This document shows, piece by piece, positions 31,555-55,189 of a stretch of 64,000 nucleotides of DNA. The notes under the pieces were generated by a model that saw nothing but the letters and a program-made list of their open reading frames with translations, searched no databases and was not told the origin of the DNA. The number at the start of each line of letters is the position of its first letter. Positions within the stretch are counted from its first letter, which is position 1. The position numbers and the translations under genes are program-made. This DNA comes from a virus (Duplodnaviria > Caudoviricetes), in the IMG/VR virus record IMGVR_UViG_3300029288_000063, positions 1-64,000 of that record, one strand, 5' to 3'.

Positions 31555-32040
31555 ATGAAGATTCGTTTGGGGTTTGTGTCCAATTCCAGCTCGTCGTCCT
31601 TTGTTGTCGCGTTGGACAAGAAGCCTTCGTCCATTGAAGAGCTTCGTGGTATGCTTTTTGTTGAAGGTGAAGAGCGGTTGAATCACCCGTATGACCGCTG
31701 TGTGTCGTTTGATGTTGACGACGTTGTTAGTGCTGTCTTTGCGTTCACCCATAAGGCTGCCAAGCGGAAGGACGTCGTCGATGCGATTGCATGTGGGTGG
31801 TTCGATGGCCACCCCGACATGTCGGATTTCCGCAAGGCAGACAAGACGTATGATTGGGATGCCTACGAGAAGGAAAAGGACAGGCGTGCCCTGAAGATTG
31901 CCAAGGAATTTATGGCGAGGAACAAGGGTAAGGTGTTTTTCACGATGTGTTTTGGTGACGAGGATGGTCTGTTTGGTTGCACGATGGAACATGGTGACGT
32001 GTTTCGGCTGGTTAAGCACCTTCGGATTAGCTGTCATTGA
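31555..32040 (+). CDS. FVSNSSS-motif protein 1
   Basis: N-terminus MKIRLGFVSNSSSSSFVV. Confidence 0.8.
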   Translation: MKIRLGFVSNSSSSSFVVALDKKPSSIEELRGMLFVEGEERLNHPYDRCVSFDVDDVVSAVFAFTHKAAKRKDVVDAIACGWFDGHPDMSDFRKADKTYDWDAYEKEKDRRALKIAKEFMARNKGKVFFTMCFGDEDGLFGCTMEHGDVFRLVKHLRISCH

Positions 32041-32081
32041 TTTTTTCTGGCAGGGCAATTATGCCCGTAAGGAGGTTGTTG

Positions 32082-32582
32082 ATGAGCGGCGATGTGTCCT
32101 TCTCAACGAAGGTGATTGACGGCGTACGGATTTGTGACGCGTCGGATGGCTCGTTTCACTATCGGTTTGACATCAAGAACGGCAACTTCATGCGTTGGGG
32201 CAAGACTCCGGCGGAAGACCCGGTGTGGTGTCCGGCGGGACCGGAAATCCTCGACCTCGAAATCAGTGTGAACGGATGTCCGAATAACTGCCGCTTCTGT
32301 TTGCCAGCGGGAGTTCCTGTGAATACTCCGTCTGGACTTGTGAATATTGAAGACCTACGAGTTGGAGACAAGGTTTTTGGATTCAACTTTGCAACAAGTT
32401 CTGTTCGTGAAGAAGTGGTAGAGCAGATTCACAATCGAGAATACGAAGGTCTTATGGTTGTTGTTGAGTTAGAAGATGGTCGTATTGTTGAGATGACAGA
32501 AGATCACATGGTTATGCTTGCTAGTGGCAATGAAGTTCGTGCTGGTGATTTGACTCCGGATGATGATGTTGTTCTTATGTAA
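32082..32582 (+). CDS. Radical SAM N-terminal fragment fused to split intein N-half (intein from 32298)
   Basis: PEILDLEIS..GCPNNCRF|CLPAG..V.T..G...IEDL.VGD.V...T.DH; stop after 94 aa of intein. Confidence 0.9.
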   Translation: MSGDVSFSTKVIDGVRICDASDGSFHYRFDIKNGNFMRWGKTPAEDPVWCPAGPEILDLEISVNGCPNNCRFCLPAGVPVNTPSGLVNIEDLRVGDKVFGFNFATSSVREEVVEQIHNREYEGLMVVVELEDGRIVEMTEDHMVMLASGNEVRAGDLTPDDDVVLM

Positions 32583-32645
32583 ATTTTATATCCTGTTTAA
32601 CATGGAGGTTGTTATAAGTCCATGTGTAAACTAAAGGAGAATAAA

Positions 32646-33614
32646 ATGTACATAGGTGTCGGAGAAGCTGCCAAGATATTGGGTAAATCCACCGATTTGG
32701 TTCGGTGGCTTGAAAAAACGGGGAAAATCAAATCTGTTCGTGTTGGAAAAAAGAACAACAGAAGGTTTCTTCTTTCTGATATTCAATCTCTTGCTCTTGA
32801 AAGAGCAAGCCCCGAATATGTAAAGCAAACGCTTCTTTGCCCCAATTGTAAAAACTTTGTTGCTGTCAAAATGGTAAAGAAGCGTCCAAATATAATGTTG
32901 GAAAGGATTGGTTCTAAACGGTGCCATGACTGCATCGAGAAACAAAAAAAGAACAACTCTTTAAGAATGTCCCGGATGAACCCAATGAAGCAAGAAGGGG
33001 TTGCTGAAAAGGTTAGCTCTACTCTAAAGAAAAAATATTCGGAAGGTGTTATTGCCGTTTGTCATTCCACTGAGACAAAAGAGAAGATAAAAGATGGTAT
33101 AAATGCATTTTGGAATTCTGAAAAAGCAGAATCGGTAAAAATTAGATTTTTTGAAAGAATGTCTCAGAACAATCCTATGTCTATCCGTTCGATTGTTGAA
33201 AAGGTTCATTCTAAGTTAAAGGCAATGAGGGATAAAGGTGAATTTGTAACTCCAAAAGGAATAAATCACTGGCTATGGAAAGGAAATCGTGGATTTTATT
33301 CTTTTGTTCGTTCGCAGCTTTATCGCCCGTGGTCTCTTGAGGTGTTGAAGCGAGATGGGTTTTGTTGTTCGTCTTGTGGTAAAACACAATGCGAACTACA
33401 TGTTCATCATGTAAGGCCGTTTCGTGATATTGTTAAGAAAGTATTGTTTGAAGAAAAGATAGATGCCAAAAATCTTGAAAAATTAAAAGATATTTGGCAG
33501 GATCTCTCCGATAAGGTATTGAGAGAACATAAGCTAGAAGACGGGGTTTCTGTTTGTGTTTATTGTCATGGGAAAATAGATTCCCGATACAGGAGATATA
33601 AAGGTGAAGATTAA
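32646..33614 (+). mobile_element. Free-standing HNH homing endonuclease with N-terminal MerR-like HTH, inserted between the split intein halves
   Basis: GEAAKILG....VR..E..GKI...R; HSTETKEKI; RDG.CC..CG....LHVHH...VC..CH; lower GC than flanks. Confidence 0.85.
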
Positions 33615-34575
33615 GCATATCGTTAAGACACCATTCAAGGGGACTGTTTACGATATTGGTTGTAGTCCAGACCATGTTTTTTTTGCGAATGGTCTTCTTG
33701 TCCATAATTGCTACAAGGGGAACACGAATGCCCCGGCTGAGAACATGACGTTTGAAACGTTCAAGGCAATCTTCGACAAGATGCCGAAGACGCTGACGCA
33801 GATTGCGTTCGGCATTACTGGCATTCAGACGAATCCGGACTTTTTCAGGATGATGGAGTATTGCCGCGAACACGACGTGGTTCCGAACTTCACCATGTCA
33901 GGTATCGACCTTACCCCGGAGATTGCAGACCGCGTGGCGTCGCTTGCCGGTGCGGTTGCGGTGTCTGTATATCAGACTGACAAGAACGTTGGCTACGACG
34001 CCATCAAAATGCTGACAGACCGTGGCATGGAACAGGTCAACATTCACCTGATGGTGAGCGAGGAGACTTTTTCTTTCGTCAAAGAGGTTGTTGTTGACCG
34101 TATGTCCGACAAGCGTCTTGAGAAGATGCGGGCGATTGTGTTCCTTGGTGTAAAGCCGAAGGGTCGTGCACGTGGCTCCTATTCGCCGCTTGGTCGTGAT
34201 AAGTTTTCGACGCTGGTTAAGTTCTGTCTTGGTGCCAATGTGCCGATTGGTTTTGATTCGTGCAGTGCACCGAAGTTTGAGAGCTTTCTTGATGGGTCGA
34301 ACATGAACCCGGCGCTTAAGGAGCAGCTCCGTATGGTTGCGGAAAGCTGCGAGTCGACTCTGTTCAGTAGCTATGTTAACCAGAAGGGTGACTTCTATCC
34401 CTGCTCGTTCTGTGAGGGTGAGGGTGAGTGGGAGAACGGTGTTTCTGTGTTGGATGCGGAAGATTTCGGTGACGTGTGGCTTCACCCGCGTGTTGTGGCG
34501 TGGCGTGAGCGGTTGGTTGATTCGTCGTGTAATGGTTGCCGCAAATGTATTGTTTTTCCAGAGATTAACGTCTGA
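33604..34575 (+). CDS. Split intein C-half (33604-33708) fused to radical SAM core and SPASM-like C-terminus
   Basis: KIKHIVK.....VYDI.....H.FFANGLLVHN|CYKGN; CES..FS.YVN..G.FYPCSFCE; CRKC. Confidence 0.9.
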   Translation: MKIKHIVKTPFKGTVYDIGCSPDHVFFANGLLVHNCYKGNTNAPAENMTFETFKAIFDKMPKTLTQIAFGITGIQTNPDFFRMMEYCREHDVVPNFTMSGIDLTPEIADRVASLAGAVAVSVYQTDKNVGYDAIKMLTDRGMEQVNIHLMVSEETFSFVKEVVVDRMSDKRLEKMRAIVFLGVKPKGRARGSYSPLGRDKFSTLVKFCLGANVPIGFDSCSAPKFESFLDGSNMNPALKEQLRMVAESCESTLFSSYVNQKGDFYPCSFCEGEGEWENGVSVLDAEDFGDVWLHPRVVAWRERLVDSSCNGCRKCIVFPEINV

Positions 34576-34589
34576 GTGGAGATTCAAAA

Positions 34590-35582
34590 GTGTTGACGCT
34601 TCTTGACTGTTTTTGCGGTGCCGGGATTGGTGCCGTTGGTGCAAAGGCTGCTGGCTTTCAAACCGTGTTTGCCTTTGATAACGACCCTGTTTCCGTTCGT
34701 GTGTTCAATAAAAACAACAACCCAGTTGCTTCCGTTTTGGATGCGAGGAAGTTGGATATTGCAAAGGACTTGCCGTCAACGGATGGGATTATGGCAGGCT
34801 TCCCGTGTAACTCCTTCTCGACAAGCGGTAAGCGGCTCGGAGTGAACGACTCCAAGTATGGAAAGCTTGGGTATATTATGCTGGACATTATCAGCCAGAA
34901 GTCACCGAAGTTCTTCCTCCTTGAAAACGTGAAGGGGCTGGCTTCAAGCTCGCACAAGGAATTCTTCGACGAACTCAAAAAGAAGCTCGTTGGGTTCGGT
35001 TACAACGTATATGCGGGGCTTCTGAACGCGGCAGACTATGGGGTTCCGCAGAAGCGCGAGCGTGTTTTCATTGTCGGTATCAAACCTGACTTGGATAAGG
35101 GCTTTGAGTTTCCCAAGAAAGCTCCCAACAAGGTCTCAATCCGTCAAGCGTTGGCTGGGTTGCCGTGCACGCCAGATGGGGTTAATAACCATTATGGGTT
35201 CGAACTCAGAAACGACGAGAAGCCGTTCGCCCACAAGATTCCTGACGGCGGCAACTGGAAAGACCTTCCTGAAGCTGACCAAAAGGCGTTCATGAAGAAG
35301 TCGTTCTTTTCGTCTGGCGGGAAGACAACGTATTTGCGAAAGGTCGACCCCGAAGAGCCAGCGTTCACAGTGATGGCTCACGTTATGGGGAAACACAGCG
35401 TTCAGTTGTATGGAAACAGAAGGTTCACCATCCGCGAGAGTTTGCGGATTCAGACCGCGCCGGATTGGTTTTCGTTCGATGACGACATTCCGGTTCAGAA
35501 GCAGTATGCTTGCTGCGGTGGTGGGATTCCTTCGCTTTTGGCGAGGCAAATTTTTGAATGCATTCGTCTTGCGTTAAAATGA
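34590..35582 (+). CDS. dcm: DNA (cytosine-5) methyltransferase
   Basis: FCGAG, GFPCNSFS, ENVKG, YGVPQKRERVFIVG, R..TIRE..RIQ. Confidence 0.9.
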   Translation: MLTLLDCFCGAGIGAVGAKAAGFQTVFAFDNDPVSVRVFNKNNNPVASVLDARKLDIAKDLPSTDGIMAGFPCNSFSTSGKRLGVNDSKYGKLGYIMLDIISQKSPKFFLLENVKGLASSSHKEFFDELKKKLVGFGYNVYAGLLNAADYGVPQKRERVFIVGIKPDLDKGFEFPKKAPNKVSIRQALAGLPCTPDGVNNHYGFELRNDEKPFAHKIPDGGNWKDLPEADQKAFMKKSFFSSGGKTTYLRKVDPEEPAFTVMAHVMGKHSVQLYGNRRFTIRESLRIQTAPDWFSFDDDIPVQKQYACCGGGIPSLLARQIFECIRLALK

Positions 35583-35649
35583 GGAGCGGTTTAAGTAGTA
35601 TAATTCGTCAAATGATACTTGTTTTTTATGGATGAGTGGAGGAACTTTC

Positions 35650-36039
35650 ATGAAGGTTCGTTTTGGATTTGTGAGTAACAGCTCAAGTACGAGTTTCTGC
35701 ATCGTTGGTATAGGAGACGATATCTCCGTCAAGGACATTTTCAAACATGTCGTCGAGAAGGAGAACATTCCACTCGAAGAAGCCTACGACATGTTTGGTT
35801 GTGGTACTGAGGAAATTGGTGGTTTGGTTTTCACAGGTCACCCGGCGTACGACTGCACCTCTTGGGAGGATTTTCTTGCAAACTCCGACCTCGACTATGT
35901 TGGGGTTGATGCTGAAAAAATCCTCGAATCCGCCTCCATCTCCCAAGCACGCCAGAAGGTTCGCGCCATCTTTGCGGAAATTGGTGTTGACGTGCCCGAG
36001 AAGAGCATTGGTCTCCACTACGGCGAGGCGTCAAACTAA
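35650..36039 (+). CDS. FVSNSSS-motif protein 2
   Basis: MKVRFGFVSNSSSTSFCIVG. Confidence 0.8.
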   Translation: MKVRFGFVSNSSSTSFCIVGIGDDISVKDIFKHVVEKENIPLEEAYDMFGCGTEEIGGLVFTGHPAYDCTSWEDFLANSDLDYVGVDAEKILESASISQARQKVRAIFAEIGVDVPEKSIGLHYGEASN

Positions 36040-36221
36040 TGAAAAGAATTAAGTGTACTTGGTGCGGGAAAGCGGTGTCGTCACCGGTGCCTGATGATGT
36101 GGTGATTCGGGCTGTCATTGAATGCCCGGAGTGTGTCCTGAAGCGGAAAGCGAATAATCCGCCGGGCGATATCAACGAAAGGAAGGATGATGAAGGTTCG
36201 TCAGGGTTTTGTAAGCAATAG
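36039..36221 (+). CDS. Small Zn-finger protein
   Basis: CTWC...ECPEC. Confidence 0.55.
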   Translation: MKRIKCTWCGKAVSSPVPDDVVIRAVIECPECVLKRKANNPPGDINERKDDEGSSGFCKQ

Positions 36222-36570
36222 CTCGTCAACGTCGTTTCTGATTGGAACGACGGAGCCGATTTCGTTTGAGTTTCTATGTCGTGTGATGCGCGTCGAGGAG
36301 AGTCCTGCCAAAAAGATTCTGGAGTCTCTCGCCCGATATGTTTCCAAACACGTGAAGCAGCTTGACGCGAAGAAGTGGTGTGATGACCATTACTCGGAAT
36401 CGGTCCCGCCGGTGTTCACACGGATGGCTGCGGGTTTTCCGAACCTCTATTCCCTTAGCGTGTCAAATTGTGATGATGGTGAGGGCAATTTCCTGTATGA
36501 AGTTTTTCAGGAAGAGGTGGACGTTATCAAGTCGGCGGAAATCGAGATGTCGATGCCGTATGGGGATTGA
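36187..36570 (+). CDS. FVSNSSS-motif protein 3
   Basis: MKVRQGFVSNSSSTSFLIG. Confidence 0.8.
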   Translation: MMKVRQGFVSNSSSTSFLIGTTEPISFEFLCRVMRVEESPAKKILESLARYVSKHVKQLDAKKWCDDHYSESVPPVFTRMAAGFPNLYSLSVSNCDDGEGNFLYEVFQEEVDVIKSAEIEMSMPYGD

Positions 36571-36573
36571 ATT

Positions 36574-36861
36574 ATGAAGGCTCGTTTTGGGTTTGTGTCC
36601 AACAGCTCGTCGTGCTCGTTCGTCTTGGATGTCTCCGGGCTTCGGAAAAGCCAGAAGAACAAGATTCTCCACCACGAGGAGTTTGCAGAAAACATAGGCT
36701 GGGATGGCGCGTGTCGTGGTTGGGGGTGGGAAATCAAAGAGGATGGCGACAAGTGGTTTTGCAATACCTCGCTTGACAATTTCGATCTTGTTCGGTGGAT
36801 TGTCGAGGTTGTTGGTTTGTCGCCTGACCGCATGTCTGACATGCAGGAAGGACATTGGTAA
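36574..36861 (+). CDS. FVSNSSS-motif protein 4
   Basis: MKARFGFVSNSSSCSFVLD. Confidence 0.8.
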   Translation: MKARFGFVSNSSSCSFVLDVSGLRKSQKNKILHHEEFAENIGWDGACRGWGWEIKEDGDKWFCNTSLDNFDLVRWIVEVVGLSPDRMSDMQEGHW

Positions 36862-36987: not shown

Positions 36988-37866
36988 ATGCCGATGGAAA
37001 TTCAGTCCCTGTCGATTTGTGTTCCCACCCCGCGTTGTGTAAACAACTGCAAGTTCTGCGTCTCCAAGATGGGCGATAACGCCTATCCCAACCAAATCGA
37101 AAAGAACAAACGGTTCAGCGACCTGTATCGGCGCGACTTCATCCGCCGTTTACAATTTGCACGAGACAACGGGTGTAATACGGTTATTCTGACCGGGGAC
37201 GGTGAGCCGCTGTCCAATGTCGACTTTCTCGACAAGTTTTCCGAATGGAACGAGAAGCTGACCTCGCCGTTCCAATGGGTCGAGGTCCAGACATCGGGCG
37301 TCCTGCTGGACGAAGAGATGCTTCGTCACCTTCGGAATATGGTGGGCGTGTCGACCATCGCCCTGAGCCTGTCGAACATTTTCAATTCCGAAAGCAATCA
37401 CGAAATGAACCAGACGCCCGAGAAGCTTCGGTTCGACATCGACCACCTGTGTTCGGAAATCAAGCGGTACGATTTCAACCTGCGCCTATCTCTCAACATG
37501 ACGGACGTTTATAGCAGTTTGACACTGTGGGAGATTTTCAGCCGTGCGAAGATTCTCGGAGCAGACCAAATCACCTTCCGCGTGCTTTATGAGTCTGGCA
37601 CCGGAACGGAAGAAGACAAGTGGATTAAGAAACACCGCTGCAACCCGTACAAGATTGAGCAGATTAGCAGGTTCATCAAGAAAAACGGGCGCGAGTTGGA
37701 GGTTCTTCCGTTCGGCGCGACACGGTATTCTGTGGATGGGATGTCGGTGGTGCTGGATGGCGACTGCATGTCCGGCGCGGTGAAGCCGACGATTCGGTAT
37801 CTGGTTCTTCGCCCCGACTGCAAGCTGTATACGAAGTGGGACGACAAGGGAAGCAAGGTGTTTTGA
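36988..37866 (+). CDS. Radical SAM protein
   Basis: SICVP..RCVNNCKFC; TG.GEP; QTSG. Confidence 0.85.
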   Translation: MPMEIQSLSICVPTPRCVNNCKFCVSKMGDNAYPNQIEKNKRFSDLYRRDFIRRLQFARDNGCNTVILTGDGEPLSNVDFLDKFSEWNEKLTSPFQWVEVQTSGVLLDEEMLRHLRNMVGVSTIALSLSNIFNSESNHEMNQTPEKLRFDIDHLCSEIKRYDFNLRLSLNMTDVYSSLTLWEIFSRAKILGADQITFRVLYESGTGTEEDKWIKKHRCNPYKIEQISRFIKKNGRELEVLPFGATRYSVDGMSVVLDGDCMSGAVKPTIRYLVLRPDCKLYTKWDDKGSKVF

Positions 37867-52193: not shown

Positions 52194-52588
52194 ATATGGA
52201 TTTGGACGAATTTGTCGCCGAGCAAAAACGGCGCATTGAAGAGTTCGAAAAGTTTTGGCGTGAAAACAACAAAAGAGACCCCAAAGCGTTTCCTATTAAA
52301 CTCAGTAAGGAGAATACGGGGTTGTGGTACGAACAGTTTCAGTTGTTTGACGAATAGGGGGAATCTTGAAAAGGTTGCCGTGTACTGTGAAGCAGATGTG
52401 TAAGATGCTTCGTTCCGGTATGTCGCCGGATGACGTCGTTGCGTGTTTCGACCATGAGGACGCGGATGTTGTTAGCGACATTTTTTCCAAAGCGCACAAA
52501 ATGGCATCGCACAAAGAAAGACGGGATAAAACCCAGCGAGAAGACGTATAGTTCTTTACTTCTGTATTTGTTTTCAAAAGGAATTGCT

Positions 52589-55189
52589 ATGTCTAAAAGC
52601 AAAGAGGTGAATCAGCGAGACCTGTCTTATAGTGGTTGTTACGGGTCTGTCGTGTCGTATGCCGAGGTTGGTGAGTTTCTGCAAACCAGTTTCCATATGA
52701 ACCGGCTCGCCGAAGAGCACGGTGACTCGCGTTATGCCGCCTGTATTTGGGGACACCCCGGTATTGGGAAATGTGTGTCTGGAGACACACTGGTTAAAAC
52801 ACAACATGGGGTTGTTGAGATTGCATCGTTATTCGATGGCATAGAGAAAGAGGGGTTCTACCCTGTCTCTGATTTGTTTTTGGCAACGAGGAAAGGGGCG
52901 GAACCTGTAAAGTCACTGTATTTTTCCGGCCGGAAAAAAGCTATCCGTATTAAAACAGACTTCGGTCGAGAACTTGTCGGGAGTGAAATTCACCCAGTTC
53001 TCTGTGCTTCTGATAATTTCCGTTGGAAGACCTTGAGTGAAATCTGTATTGGTGATTTTGTTGTAGTTCGTGGATTTCCTCTTGATTCACAGAACTGTTC
53101 TCTTCCTGCGTTTCCGTCTCCTCGTCCGAGACAGAAATCTGATTTTTCAATTCCGAAGAAAATGAATCCGGACCTCGCGTTCATCCTTGGGTGTCTTGTT
53201 GGTGAAGGGAGTGTCTCTGGAGACATCATCGCCTTTACTCAAGCCAAAGATAAGTTGTTGGCCTCTGCTTTTGTTAAGAAGTTCAAGAGTTTGTTTGGTG
53301 TTGGTGTTTCCGAGGAACATGATAGGCGTACAGAAAACACCTACAACTTTCGTTGTTTTCGCTCCTTGCTTCGTCATTGGCTTGAATTGATTGGATTGGG
53401 TCGTGTTTGTTCGTCGAACAAAGAAATACCTTGGAGTGTTCTGTGTTCCTCCGCTACATCGCAAAAGTCGTTTCTAAAGGCACTTTACGAAGGGGAAGGG
53501 ACGAACGAGGTGTGTGGTATTTCGTTGTCGTCTGCCTCGAAGCGTTTGCTTGAACAAGTCTCGACCATCCTTCTTGGGTTCGGAATTCAAGCTTCGTTAT
53601 CGTTTCGGGTGGTTGATGGAACTACCTATTGGAATCTTCTTTGCAGTGGGGAAAATGGACGCCTGTTGAATGAATTGATTGGATTTAGCAGGGCTTCCGG
53701 TAAGTGGACGAAGGTAGTTGGTTCGAATCCCAATAAGGGAGGGGTTCCGGCAAAGATAGCTTGTGAAATGTTGTTGTCCATGAAGGATAGTCATTTGAAT
53801 AATGGCGGGAAATTGTCGAAGAAGATGATTCACTCGTCTCCTCTCAACAAGATTTACAACCAGAAACATCTGCCGCAGATTCTTTCTGTCACGCTGGTCG
53901 AAAAGATTATGAAAATCTTCAATAAAGCAAGTAACGAGACACGCTCTGTTGTTGAAGATTTGCTTCGGTCAAAGTACGAGCGTGTTGTGTCTGTTGAAGT
54001 TGTTGATGATTTGCCTCTTTACGATGTGACAATGGACACAGAAGAGCATGAGTTTTTGTCGAACGGATTCGTTTCCCACAATACCGCAATCGTGAAACAG
54101 CTCGCCAAATGTCCGGTCGAATGGAATGGGAAAATGTATCCCGGATATCACGTGTCCGACGTTCCCGTTGCACAGTTCGAGGAAATGGGCGACCTGCACG
54201 GTATCCCGATGGACTGTGTGCTGATGCGCCAGCCGTCGAAGAAGGATGCCGGTGAGTTCATCACCCAGTGGGTTGCGCAGAAAGACCAGATTATCCACAC
54301 CTACCTTGCCAATGGCTGGGAGATTGATACATCGGTGCAGCCGACCACAAGGTATGCCCCGCCGGATTGGGTTCCGACCACACCCGGACCATCCATCGTT
54401 CTGTTTGACGATTGGAATCGTCCGTCTCTTCGTGTTATCAAGGGTATGATGCAGCTCCTGCAAAACTTCGGCATGGTGTCGTGGAAGCTGCCTCTCGGCT
54501 GCAATATCGTTCTGACAGGTAACCCCGATGAACAGGACTATCTCGTCACATCAATCGACACGGCGATTGTGACCCGTATTCGCCATATTACCCTGAAGGA
54601 AGACATGGCGGAGTGGGCTGTGTGGGCTGAGGCGTCCGGACTGGATGCCCGTGGGATTTCCTATGCCCTGCGTTATCCGGAAATGATTACCGGTATCGGT
54701 CGTGAGCGCACCAACCCGCGTACATTTTCGGAGTTTTGCCGGTTCATGCGGCATATTGGCACCGAAGACAAGGAACGCCTGATTCGGCATGGCATGTCGT
54801 TGTTGGACGAACAAACCGTGTCGAACATCATCGTGTTCTTCGAACGTGAGCTTGAACTTGTTATCGAGCCGGATGAAATTCTTGCAGGTGACGATTCCGC
54901 GTTCAAGGCGATTGAGAACCTGATGTCGCGCAAGGAACCCCGTGTGGATATTCTTGGGGTTATCTGTGAACGCCTGTTTGCCCGTATTGTCCAGCCGGGA
55001 TTTACCATCGAGAAGCCGAAGGTGGCGAACTTCCACAGGTTCCTCGAAATGGATTGTGTTCCCGAGGACGTGCGTTATGGGTTGTGTCACCGCATCACCA
55101 AGCGTGGCAGTCCAGAGTTGAACAGGTGGCTTGTTGGCTCGAAAAAGCTCCAGAAAATTATCGCCTCCACGCTTCGCCTTCCTGCTTGA
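52589..55189 (+). CDS. MoxR-like AAA ATPase interrupted by an intein
   Basis: IWGHPGIGK|intein|TAIV; LFDDWNR, LTGNP, R, NPRT. Confidence 0.85.
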   Translation: MSKSKEVNQRDLSYSGCYGSVVSYAEVGEFLQTSFHMNRLAEEHGDSRYAACIWGHPGIGKCVSGDTLVKTQHGVVEIASLFDGIEKEGFYPVSDLFLATRKGAEPVKSLYFSGRKKAIRIKTDFGRELVGSEIHPVLCASDNFRWKTLSEICIGDFVVVRGFPLDSQNCSLPAFPSPRPRQKSDFSIPKKMNPDLAFILGCLVGEGSVSGDIIAFTQAKDKLLASAFVKKFKSLFGVGVSEEHDRRTENTYNFRCFRSLLRHWLELIGLGRVCSSNKEIPWSVLCSSATSQKSFLKALYEGEGTNEVCGISLSSASKRLLEQVSTILLGFGIQASLSFRVVDGTTYWNLLCSGENGRLLNELIGFSRASGKWTKVVGSNPNKGGVPAKIACEMLLSMKDSHLNNGGKLSKKMIHSSPLNKIYNQKHLPQILSVTLVEKIMKIFNKASNETRSVVEDLLRSKYERVVSVEVVDDLPLYDVTMDTEEHEFLSNGFVSHNTAIVKQLAKCPVEWNGKMYPGYHVSDVPVAQFEEMGDLHGIPMDCVLMRQPSKKDAGEFITQWVAQKDQIIHTYLANGWEIDTSVQPTTRYAPPDWVPTTPGPSIVLFDDWNRPSLRVIKGMMQLLQNFGMVSWKLPLGCNIVLTGNPDEQDYLVTSIDTAIVTRIRHITLKEDMAEWAVWAEASGLDARGISYALRYPEMITGIGRERTNPRTFSEFCRFMRHIGTEDKERLIRHGMSLLDEQTVSNIIVFFERELELVIEPDEILAGDDSAFKAIENLMSRKEPRVDILGVICERLFARIVQPGFTIEKPKVANFHRFLEMDCVPEDVRYGLCHRITKRGSPELNRWLVGSKKLQKIIASTLRLPA
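52772..54082 (+). mobile_element. Contiguous intein (437 aa) with LAGLIDADG homing endonuclease, inserted in Walker A
   Basis: Starts CVSGDT; LGCLVGEG and FLKALYEGEG blocks; ends YDVT...H.FLSNGFVSHN|T. Confidence 0.9.

Follow-up and report, generated by a model that had tools for sequence, protein, structure and literature searches.

A probable mobile split-intein and HNH endonuclease cassette in a radical SAM/SPASM gene of a giant uncultured phage

How might a radical SAM enzyme be made from a gene that is broken inside its iron-sulfur (Fe-S) cluster motif, with a further gene lodged in the break? This question is raised by a locus in a 64,000-nucleotide (nt) stretch of viral DNA (positions 1 to 64,000 of IMG/VR record IMGVR_UViG_3300029288_000063; termed the window herein), which comes from a giant uncultured phage with a genome record of 253 kb, estimated to be ~75% complete. 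Three open reading frames (ORFs) were confirmed at the locus, all of them intact: an N-half, in which the first part of the enzyme (N-extein) runs into the first part of an intein (N-intein); a putative HNH homing-endonuclease gene; and a C-half, in which the C-intein precedes the rest of the enzyme (C-extein) (Table 1). We consider it very likely that they make up a mobile split-intein/HNH cassette in a radical SAM/SPASM gene, the two halves of which would be joined by trans-splicing. The locus itself is real and probably functional, with trans-splicing predicted from the sequence. Labels of the form L### denote related viral contigs and those of the form P#### homologous proteins or clusters from protein collections; a slash within a motif marks a splice junction.

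By homology, the broken gene is one for a radical SAM/SPASM-type enzyme of 360 amino acids (aa) once joined. Both exteins matched phrog_7293 (N-extein, E = 3.5e-8, positions 30 to 86; C-extein, E = 5.1e-75, positions 75 to 360) as well as RB16p156, a 384-aa 'putative radical SAM protein' of coliphage RB16 (BLASTP E = 2e-11 for the N-extein and 45% identity for the C-extein). Homologues of the C-extein with this annotation were found in RB16 and about 170 related T4-like phages. The C-extein, which holds the remaining radical SAM core and a SPASM-type Cys-rich C-terminal part, also matched TIGR03962 (E = 7.8e-9), while SPASM-domain matches were weak (0.013 to 0.034). PF04055 was present in intein-free relatives, and the structure model of a relative matched the SPASM enzymes CteB (5why) and anSME (4k39).

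The cluster-binding motif, CxxxCxxC, is complete only in the spliced form (CPNNCRF+C). The closest intein-free metagenomic homologues of the C-extein, P0003 (77% identity) and P0004 (73%), read GCPNNCRFCYKGN at the junction, and GCPNNCRFCYKGNTNAPAENM... over a longer stretch across it, and RB16p156 reads CGF-CYKSN at the equivalent position. The predicted spliced junction, CPNNCRF-CYKGN, is the junction of P0003 and P0004. Because these intein-free junctions match, the intein is placed between the second and the third Cys of CxxxCxxC, with the third Cys as its +1 nucleophile, in agreement with a first-pass annotation of the window, which had proposed that splicing would restore the motif.

Both intein pieces were recognized by intein profiles. 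The N-half scored over the cut-off in Pfam Hint (PF01079, E = 7.6e-8) and TIGR01445 intein_Nterm (E = 2e-5) and the C-half in TIGR01443 intein_Cterm (E = 6.6e-5), so that the alignment to intein hidden Markov models suggested in the first-pass annotation succeeded for both halves. Its dissection of the two ORFs likewise stood: the ORF borders and the profile matches agree on an extein ending in GCPNNCRF that is followed by a 94-aa N-intein and a stop, and on a C-half that begins with a 35-aa C-intein ending in HN, directly followed by CYKGN. The catalytic residues of a class-1 intein are complete (Cys1, T67xxH70, the block F Asp, H34-N35, and Cys+1), and LVHN/C was invariant in 19 relatives. 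The N-intein covers positions 10 to 94 of the PF14890 profile and the C-intein positions 122 to 155; since the break falls between positions 94 and 122, the intein is split at the usual site of the endonuclease domain. The lengths of the pieces are close to fixed, with 94 aa for the N-intein in 10 of 11 relatives, and 35 aa together with an MKI start for the C-intein in 18 of 19. The N-intein carries a net charge of -13 and the C-intein one of +2 (+4 within its first 14 residues).

Support for the fold came from P0011, a natural contiguous relative of 517 aa, in which ...DDVVVLK joins MKIENI... directly and which shares 64% and 83% identity with the window in the two parts of the intein. Its model (predicted local distance difference test [pLDDT] score, 80.6) contains a HINT domain that matched the Ssp DnaB, Npu DnaE, gp41-1, and NrdJ-1 inteins with target-normalized template modeling (TM) scores of 0.76 to 0.82 and a probability of 1.0, the comparison being one of P0011 and not of the window's own halves. 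The point equivalent to the split lies in a loop of this model. The best sequence match of the intein in the PDB was a bacterial intein-like (BIL) domain (E = 4.5e-6). The intein is thus probably of a naturally split class-1 type, for which trans-splicing is predicted.

Each of the three genes has its own Shine-Dalgarno (SD) site. The HNH gene most likely starts at ATG 32646, with ATG 32622 as the alternative, so that the gap behind the N-half measures 39 or 63 nt depending on the choice of start codon; at its 3' end the gene overlaps the C-half by 11 nt. The first-pass annotation had described the HNH gene as out of frame, which holds relative to the C-half only: the gene shares the frame of the N-half, from which it is separated by two in-frame TAA codons (32580 and 32598).

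The protein encoded between the halves matched PHROG 8446 'HNH endonuclease' (E = 2.6e-9) and, at its N terminus, HTH_17 (E = 4.7e-5). Its layout runs from an N-terminal helix-turn-helix (HTH) domain through a zinc ribbon and an NNPM/WKGNR region (here the slash separates two motifs) to a C-terminal HNH motif (CxxC...HH...CxxCH). Aligned with seven relatives (alignment A4), it showed invariant zinc-ribbon cysteines (C65, C68, C93, and C96), NPM and WKGNR motifs, and an invariant HNH signature (C241, C244, H254, H255, H295, C304, C307, and H308). The best PDB matches of its structure model (pLDDT, 69.5) were the phage HNH endonucleases SciA of T5 and GVE2 (9qgx, probability 1.0; 5h0m, probability 0.96; E = 0.056 to 0.3); Foldseek gave no match to the model at E ≤ 0.001, the top matches being HNH endonucleases nonetheless. 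A tblastn search of the protein against 50,697 isolated phage genomes returned nothing at E ≤ 1e-3, and in a blastn search with the locus the neighboring methylase was the only match. The N-terminal domain in the window (HTH_17/excisionase-like; 32646-32810) is replaced in relatives by extra Cys-rich zinc ribbons, and the DNA-recognition module of this protein seems to have been exchanged.

A predicted RNA hairpin spans the start of the HNH gene (minimum free energy, -27.2 kcal/mol; z = -5.6; none of 200 shuffled sequences folded as well). It pairs the SD sequence (AAGGAG) and AUG 32646 of the HNH gene and extends back over the stop codon of the N-half, an arrangement that may allow translational control. 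Comparable hairpins were found in L028 (z = -2.65) and L032 (z = -3.5), and none in L066. Scans for sigma-70 promoters and for terminators at the locus gave nothing above chance.

Composition sets the cassette apart from the gene that it interrupts. G+C content at third codon positions (GC3) was 0.71 in the N-extein, 0.63 in the C-extein, and ~0.60 in neighboring genes, compared with values of 0.28 and 0.34 for the N- and C-inteins, 0.33 for the HNH gene, and 0.24 for the spacer, and the steps coincide exactly with both splice junctions. Overall G+C content of the HNH gene was 0.37 versus ~0.5 in the flanks, which bears out the lower value noted in the first-pass annotation. The intein is also more conserved than its host protein: window and P0122 share 88% identity in the N-intein and 59% in the N-extein, and window and P0002 share 97% in the C-intein and 69% in the C-extein. 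No intein is present in the nearest exteins. In a tree built from 117 C-exteins, 15 rows of which bear an intein, 14 changes of intein state were needed, versus a mean of 14.3 with shuffled labels, and at least 7 of the 14 were forced by branches with Shimodaira-Hasegawa-like approximate likelihood-ratio test (SH-aLRT) support of ≥95. The foreign composition, the higher conservation of the intein, and the scattered alleles together identify the cassette as a mobile element. The sporadic pattern on the tree is what homing and loss produce, and homing would be the predicted route of spread.

The layout recurs in other phages. Five parts of the locus were searched by tblastn against 62 related viral contigs, for which ORF maps were then made. 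The same order of N-half, HNH gene, and C-half, with a homologous HNH gene, was present in L028, L032, and L066 (31 to 35% identity to the window in the HNH protein and 40 to 44% in the exteins), and about 50 loci were intein-free. When 1.84 billion representatives were searched in full with HMMER, 1,120 matches were obtained, and the best 146 of these were examined. Among these 146, at least 60 (50%-identity clusters) were N-halves that stop ~94 residues past C...C../C. The protein collections also contained at least 13 further C-half clusters (90% identity) that start with MKI... and carry a 35-aa C-intein. The closest split relatives were P0002, P0122, and P0016, the last on a 508-kb NCBI contig. 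Because the layout is present in at least three other viral contigs and at least 60 metagenomic N-half clusters, it is neither an assembly artefact nor rare; the window locus is one of a large uncharacterized metagenomic family. Frame relations among the three ORFs vary from locus to locus, which indicates that the ORFs are translated independently.

Several variants were seen among the relatives. L030 has a contiguous mini-intein at the window's insertion site. About 18 clusters run on past the N-intein, and those inspected (L031, P0137, and P0155) represent a fused variant with a single N fragment of 370 to 500 aa and a 35-aa C-intein that starts a separate ORF. In L031 (2509-4108) an endonuclease-like domain lies in frame behind the N-intein, with the C-intein still on a separate ORF; this domain is of a different, AP2-like kind and had no tblastn match to the window HNH protein, while that of P0137 is an HNH domain of the window's family. 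The fused variant may be an intermediate between free-standing and intein-embedded endonucleases.

A second kind of break, after ...FDKM, occurs in L030 (2497-4795), P0128, P0112, and P0132. There the upstream ORF ends in an N-intein-like tail of which the last ~40 residues remain, with neither Cys1 nor TxxH, and the downstream ORF runs from the ~13-aa first strand of an MKI/MIV..-type C-intein (the slash here giving alternatives) straight into LTQIAFG without His-Asn; in L030, a 392-aa ORF stands between the halves. By analogy with Aeh1 NrdA, this break looks like a decayed split intein retained as a pair of docking strands. Breaks without an intein were seen in L065 (2712-4936; a GIY-YIG ORF after ...LTQIAFGIG) and L068 (2549-4642; an HNH-like ORF after ...AVSVYEH..QKY). 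This enzyme gene family is a hot spot for homing endonucleases.

Fractured genes of this layout have been described from 26 loci in eight DNA-metabolism enzymes, with GIY-YIG or Vsr-like endonucleases (Dassa et al. 2009; PMC2677866); gp41-1, gp41-8, NrdJ-1, NrdA-2, and IMPDH-1 are among the examples, and further hosts and HNH cases were expected by those authors. The window locus shares with them the order N-extein plus N-intein, short non-coding gap, free-standing endonuclease gene, and C-intein plus C-extein, on one strand of a phage genome, and also the hairpin in the 5' untranslated region of the endonuclease gene. Its gap of 39 or 63 nt compares with 27 to 51 nt, and its 3' overlap of 11 nt with 6 to 69 nt, in the published loci (PMC2677866). 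The term fractured gene, used in the first-pass annotation, is therefore apt, given the same-strand order, short gap, endonuclease hairpin, and 3' overlap. Unlike the published loci, the host here is a radical SAM/SPASM enzyme and not any of the eight DNA synthesis or repair enzymes, and the endonuclease is of an HTH+HNH type and not GIY-YIG or Vsr-like; unlike many of them, the locus also lacks a late-promoter element. The GIY-YIG or Vsr-like nuclease and the DNA-enzyme host are features of that sample and not of the definition. What is new is the host enzyme, which is not among the published fractured genes, the layout itself having been known since 2009.

Other systems resemble the locus in part. 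In the Pseudomonas jumbo phage vB_PaeM_MIJ3, the PolB gene is split by an intein with a separate HNH-family ORF between the halves (PMC6892783). The two loci thus share a jumbo phage genome, a split intein, and an intervening homing-endonuclease ORF of the HNH family, but the PolB intein has Ser1 and Ser+1 (SVDGST..., ...LVHNS) and no Fe-S motif, whereas that of the window has Cys1 and Cys+1. In the Aeromonas phage Aeh1, the HNH gene mobE splits nrdA (Friedrich et al. 2007; PMC3045599); the likeness lies in a free-standing HNH gene that splits a phage enzyme gene and in a hairpin that masks the ribosome-binding site of the endonuclease, and the difference in that nrdA has no intein and its fragments assemble non-covalently. 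The Npu and Ssp DnaE inteins agree with the window intein in split position (~100 + ~35 aa), in an acidic N piece, and in a basic C piece, and the P0011 HINT fold compares with Npu DnaE at a target-normalized TM score of 0.78. The DnaE halves, in contrast, are encoded at distant genomic sites, have no intervening endonuclease gene, and belong to another host protein.

Radical SAM enzymes, of which MoaA is one, also host contiguous inteins at or near this site. The Pyrococcus abyssi MoaA intein, as reviews relate the work of Callahan et al. (2011), is gated by a Cys-3/Cys1 disulfide (PMC3922620, PMC10663303). It has the same C(-3)xx/C1 arrangement as the window (CRF/C) and likewise sits in an oxygen-labile host, but it is contiguous, archaeal, and without a free-standing endonuclease gene, and that the two insertion sites are identical is something we infer. 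NCBIfam NF038136 ('intein-containing Rv2578c family radical SAM protein') aligned colinearly across CxxxCxx/C into the N-intein, and in P0248 and P0262, TIGR04115-type radical SAM peptide maturases, an intein stands directly after C...C.. at the third Cys. Unlike that of the window, the inteins of the NF038136 family, P0248, and P0262 are contiguous and lie in other radical SAM families; the window protein is not an NF038136-type family member, as all scores were far below the family cut-offs. The first-pass annotation had known of no such layout in a radical SAM Fe-S motif. For split inteins this held in the literature searched, in which no paper reported a radical SAM gene with a split intein, or a CxxxCxxC motif interrupted by an intein of either the split or the contiguous kind; contiguous inteins do occur at this site or close to it, as MoaA and NF038136 illustrate.

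In P0247 and P0217, from another radical SAM family, a contiguous mini-intein ends in ...ILVHN just ahead of the first CxxxCxxC cysteine, and the third cysteine marks the start of a second, split intein; only seven extein residues (CPFACRY) separate the two inteins.

The explanation that we favor is that a selfish 1.4-kb cassette occupies the radical SAM/SPASM gene directly ahead of the codon for the third cluster-binding Cys. Its parts would be a class-1 intein, divided at the loop in which endonucleases are canonically inserted, and a free-standing HTH+HNH homing-endonuclease gene that fills the gap. Two polypeptides would be made, one of N-extein plus 94-aa N-intein and one of 35-aa C-intein plus C-extein, and the acidic N-intein would pair with the C-intein, through the basic start of the latter, into a HINT fold that trans-splices. 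Splicing would join ...CPNNCRF to CYKGN..., recreating CxxxCxxC of the 360-aa enzyme, with the third Fe-S ligand acting as the +1 nucleophile. The hairpin may mask the ribosome-binding site of the HNH gene. The putative HNH enzyme would cut cassette-free alleles in co-infecting phages, and repair would copy the whole cassette (homing).

Other explanations of the same break have to be weighed. The halves might merely dock through their intein pieces and form a non-covalent two-chain enzyme without splicing. Mobile-element remnants can hold gene fragments together, as reported for Aeh1 NrdA (PMC3045599), and docking alone seems enough at the FDKM break of L030, P0128/P0112, and P0132, which lacks Cys1 and HN. 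At the window-type break, however, Cys1, TxxH, HN, and Cys+1 are all kept across relatives that are 30 to 55% identical, which would be unexpected for a mere dock, and the third Fe-S ligand would stand directly behind an unremoved 35-aa intein piece; we therefore regard this arrangement as improbable. A little less credible again is that the cassette inactivated the gene and left pseudogene remnants. Insertions of mobile elements often do inactivate genes, but here all three ORFs are intact and each has its own ribosome-binding site, phages that differ widely share the layout with constant intein lengths of 94 and 35 aa, and the adjoining client-like genes, whose products start with a GFVSNSSSxSF tag, are intact. 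The single copy of the enzyme gene in the 253-kb record, together with these four intact tag-bearing neighbors, argues that the enzyme is still needed.

That assembly or sequencing errors broke a contiguous intein with an in-frame HNH domain is suggested by the frame that the HNH ORF shares with the N-half, and by the in-frame endonucleases behind the N-intein in L031, P0137, and some of the ~18 run-on clusters. This would require errors to account for both in-frame stops, for the frame change at the 3' end, and for a low-GC spacer of 63 nt that holds a ribosome-binding site, and independent assemblies share the stop and restart positions; moreover, frame relations vary between loci, and even L031 keeps its C-intein as a separate ORF. 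We rate such errors as very improbable. Slighter still is the chance that the insert is removed at the RNA level as a group I or II intron, its intein likeness being irrelevant. Introns carrying HNH genes often interrupt phage genes, but this insert has at its flanks genuine intein halves that share the frame of the exteins, and Rfam intron models gave no match in 31800-34800 even at E ≤ 1. The assembly, RNA-splicing, and pseudogene readings were rejected on account of the recurrent layout, the lack of an Rfam intron, and the intact ORFs with ribosome-binding sites.

Some observations weigh against a trans-splicing, homing cassette. Splicing, nuclease activity, and expression are all predicted. 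Sequence similarity between the intein and characterized split inteins is weak (gp41-1, E = 0.2; NrdJ-1, E = 0.3). The putative HNH assignment draws on the PHROG match, on the conservation of Cys and His columns, and on a model of modest quality (pLDDT, 69.5; Foldseek E = 0.056), and the Pfam HNH match was below the cut-off. No T4-type late promoter (TATAAATA) was found near the HNH gene, and 10 published loci have one. Finally, as the record is ~75% complete, an intact second copy of the enzyme gene may lie elsewhere.

If the halves do trans-splice, maturation could conceivably be conditional, since the 4Fe-4S cluster would have to be bound by Cys -7, Cys -3, Cys1, and Cys+1. Premature metal binding, or a disulfide that links Cys1 to either Cys(-3) or Cys+1, may hold the halves unspliced under oxidizing conditions, so that active enzyme would be released only in a reducing cell. 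We consider this unlikely, though less so than any of the alternatives above; if true, it would be a natural redox-gated trans-splicing switch like that reported for the contiguous P. abyssi MoaA intein.

With this locus, the fractured-gene layout is no longer confined to genes of replication and nucleotide metabolism but includes that of an Fe-S radical enzyme, in which a metal ligand would double as the splicing nucleophile. Within the enzyme family, empty alleles, a contiguous mini-intein, N-inteins with a fused endonuclease, and intein-less endonuclease breaks stand side by side, and because these states coexist the family is a good natural series on how endonucleases enter inteins and how genes become broken. 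It also offers a sequence-distinct family of split inteins, candidates for tests of speed and orthogonality versus gp41-1 and Npu DnaE; with at least 60 clusters at 50% identity, it may constitute a large and still unused source of split inteins that tolerate a Phe(-1)/Cys-Tyr-Lys(+1 to +3) junction. For annotation, the locus is a warning that two 'short' radical SAM ORFs may be one enzyme.

Table 1 Coordinates of the fractured radical SAM/SPASM locus and of tag-bearing neighboring genes in the window
Feature	Position	Strand	Details
Upstream gene, likely client of the enzyme	31555..32040	+	Tag motif; protein starts MKIRLGFVSNSSSSSF
SD site of N-half gene	32069..32075	+	AAGGAGG, 6 nt ahead of ATG 32082, read directly
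N-half ORF	32082..32582	+	Start ATG, stop TAA 32580-32582
N-extein, 72 aa, N-terminal radical SAM/SPASM part	32082..32297	+	Ends ...GCPNNCRF, the first two Cys of CxxxCxxC
N-intein, 94 aa	32298..32582	+	Cys1 at 32298-32300 (CLPAG, block A), T67-E-D-H70 (block B)
Whole putative mobile cassette (N-intein, spacer, HNH gene, C-intein), 1,411 bp	32298..33708	+	GC3 steps
Predicted RNA hairpin, N-half stop codon to just beyond HNH start	32574..32656	+	Folding
Putative HNH homing-endonuclease gene, free-standing, 322 aa	32646..33614	+	SD AAAGGAG; alternative ATG 32622
C-half ORF	33604..34575	+	Start GTG 33604, SD AGGAGA
C-intein, 35 aa	33604..33708	+	Block F VYDIGCSPDHVFFA, block G LLVHN
C-extein, 288 aa	33709..34575	+	Starts CYKGN; Cys+1 at 33709-33711 is the third Cys of CxxxCxxC
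Three more genes starting with the GFVSNSSSxSF tag	35650..36630	+	Motifs at 35665, 36205, and 36589

The tag motif GFVSNSSSxSF occurs four times in the whole 253-kb genome, and all four occurrences (31570 to 36589) flank the fractured gene. The products of the three downstream genes (35650-36039, 36190-36570, and 36574 onward), like that of the upstream one, start with M-K-x-R-x-GFVSNSSSxSF. Tag genes lay at most 4 kb from the enzyme gene and on the same strand in 46 of 59 related loci, and on the basis of this co-occurrence the tagged neighbors are probably candidate clients on which the enzyme acts. Just downstream of the fractured gene lies a gene for a C5 cytosine DNA methyltransferase (34590-35582; PF00145, E = 3.6e-62), and farther downstream a second, unrelated radical SAM gene (36988-37866; 292 aa; PF04055, E = 2.8e-12).

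The radical SAM intein was the only split one found in the phage genome. Within the window, a 919-aa ORF at 52430-55189 carries a contiguous LAGLIDADG intein in a P-loop (...GHPGIGK/C...SHN/TAIVKQ), and its host protein gave no Pfam family match. Outside the window (genome G000:C1), we also identified a contiguous intein in a 1,027-aa protein (86954-90037), a contiguous LAGLIDADG intein in a uracil-DNA glycosylase (147097-148806), and apparently two contiguous inteins in the anaerobic ribonucleotide reductase NrdD (236136-240602).

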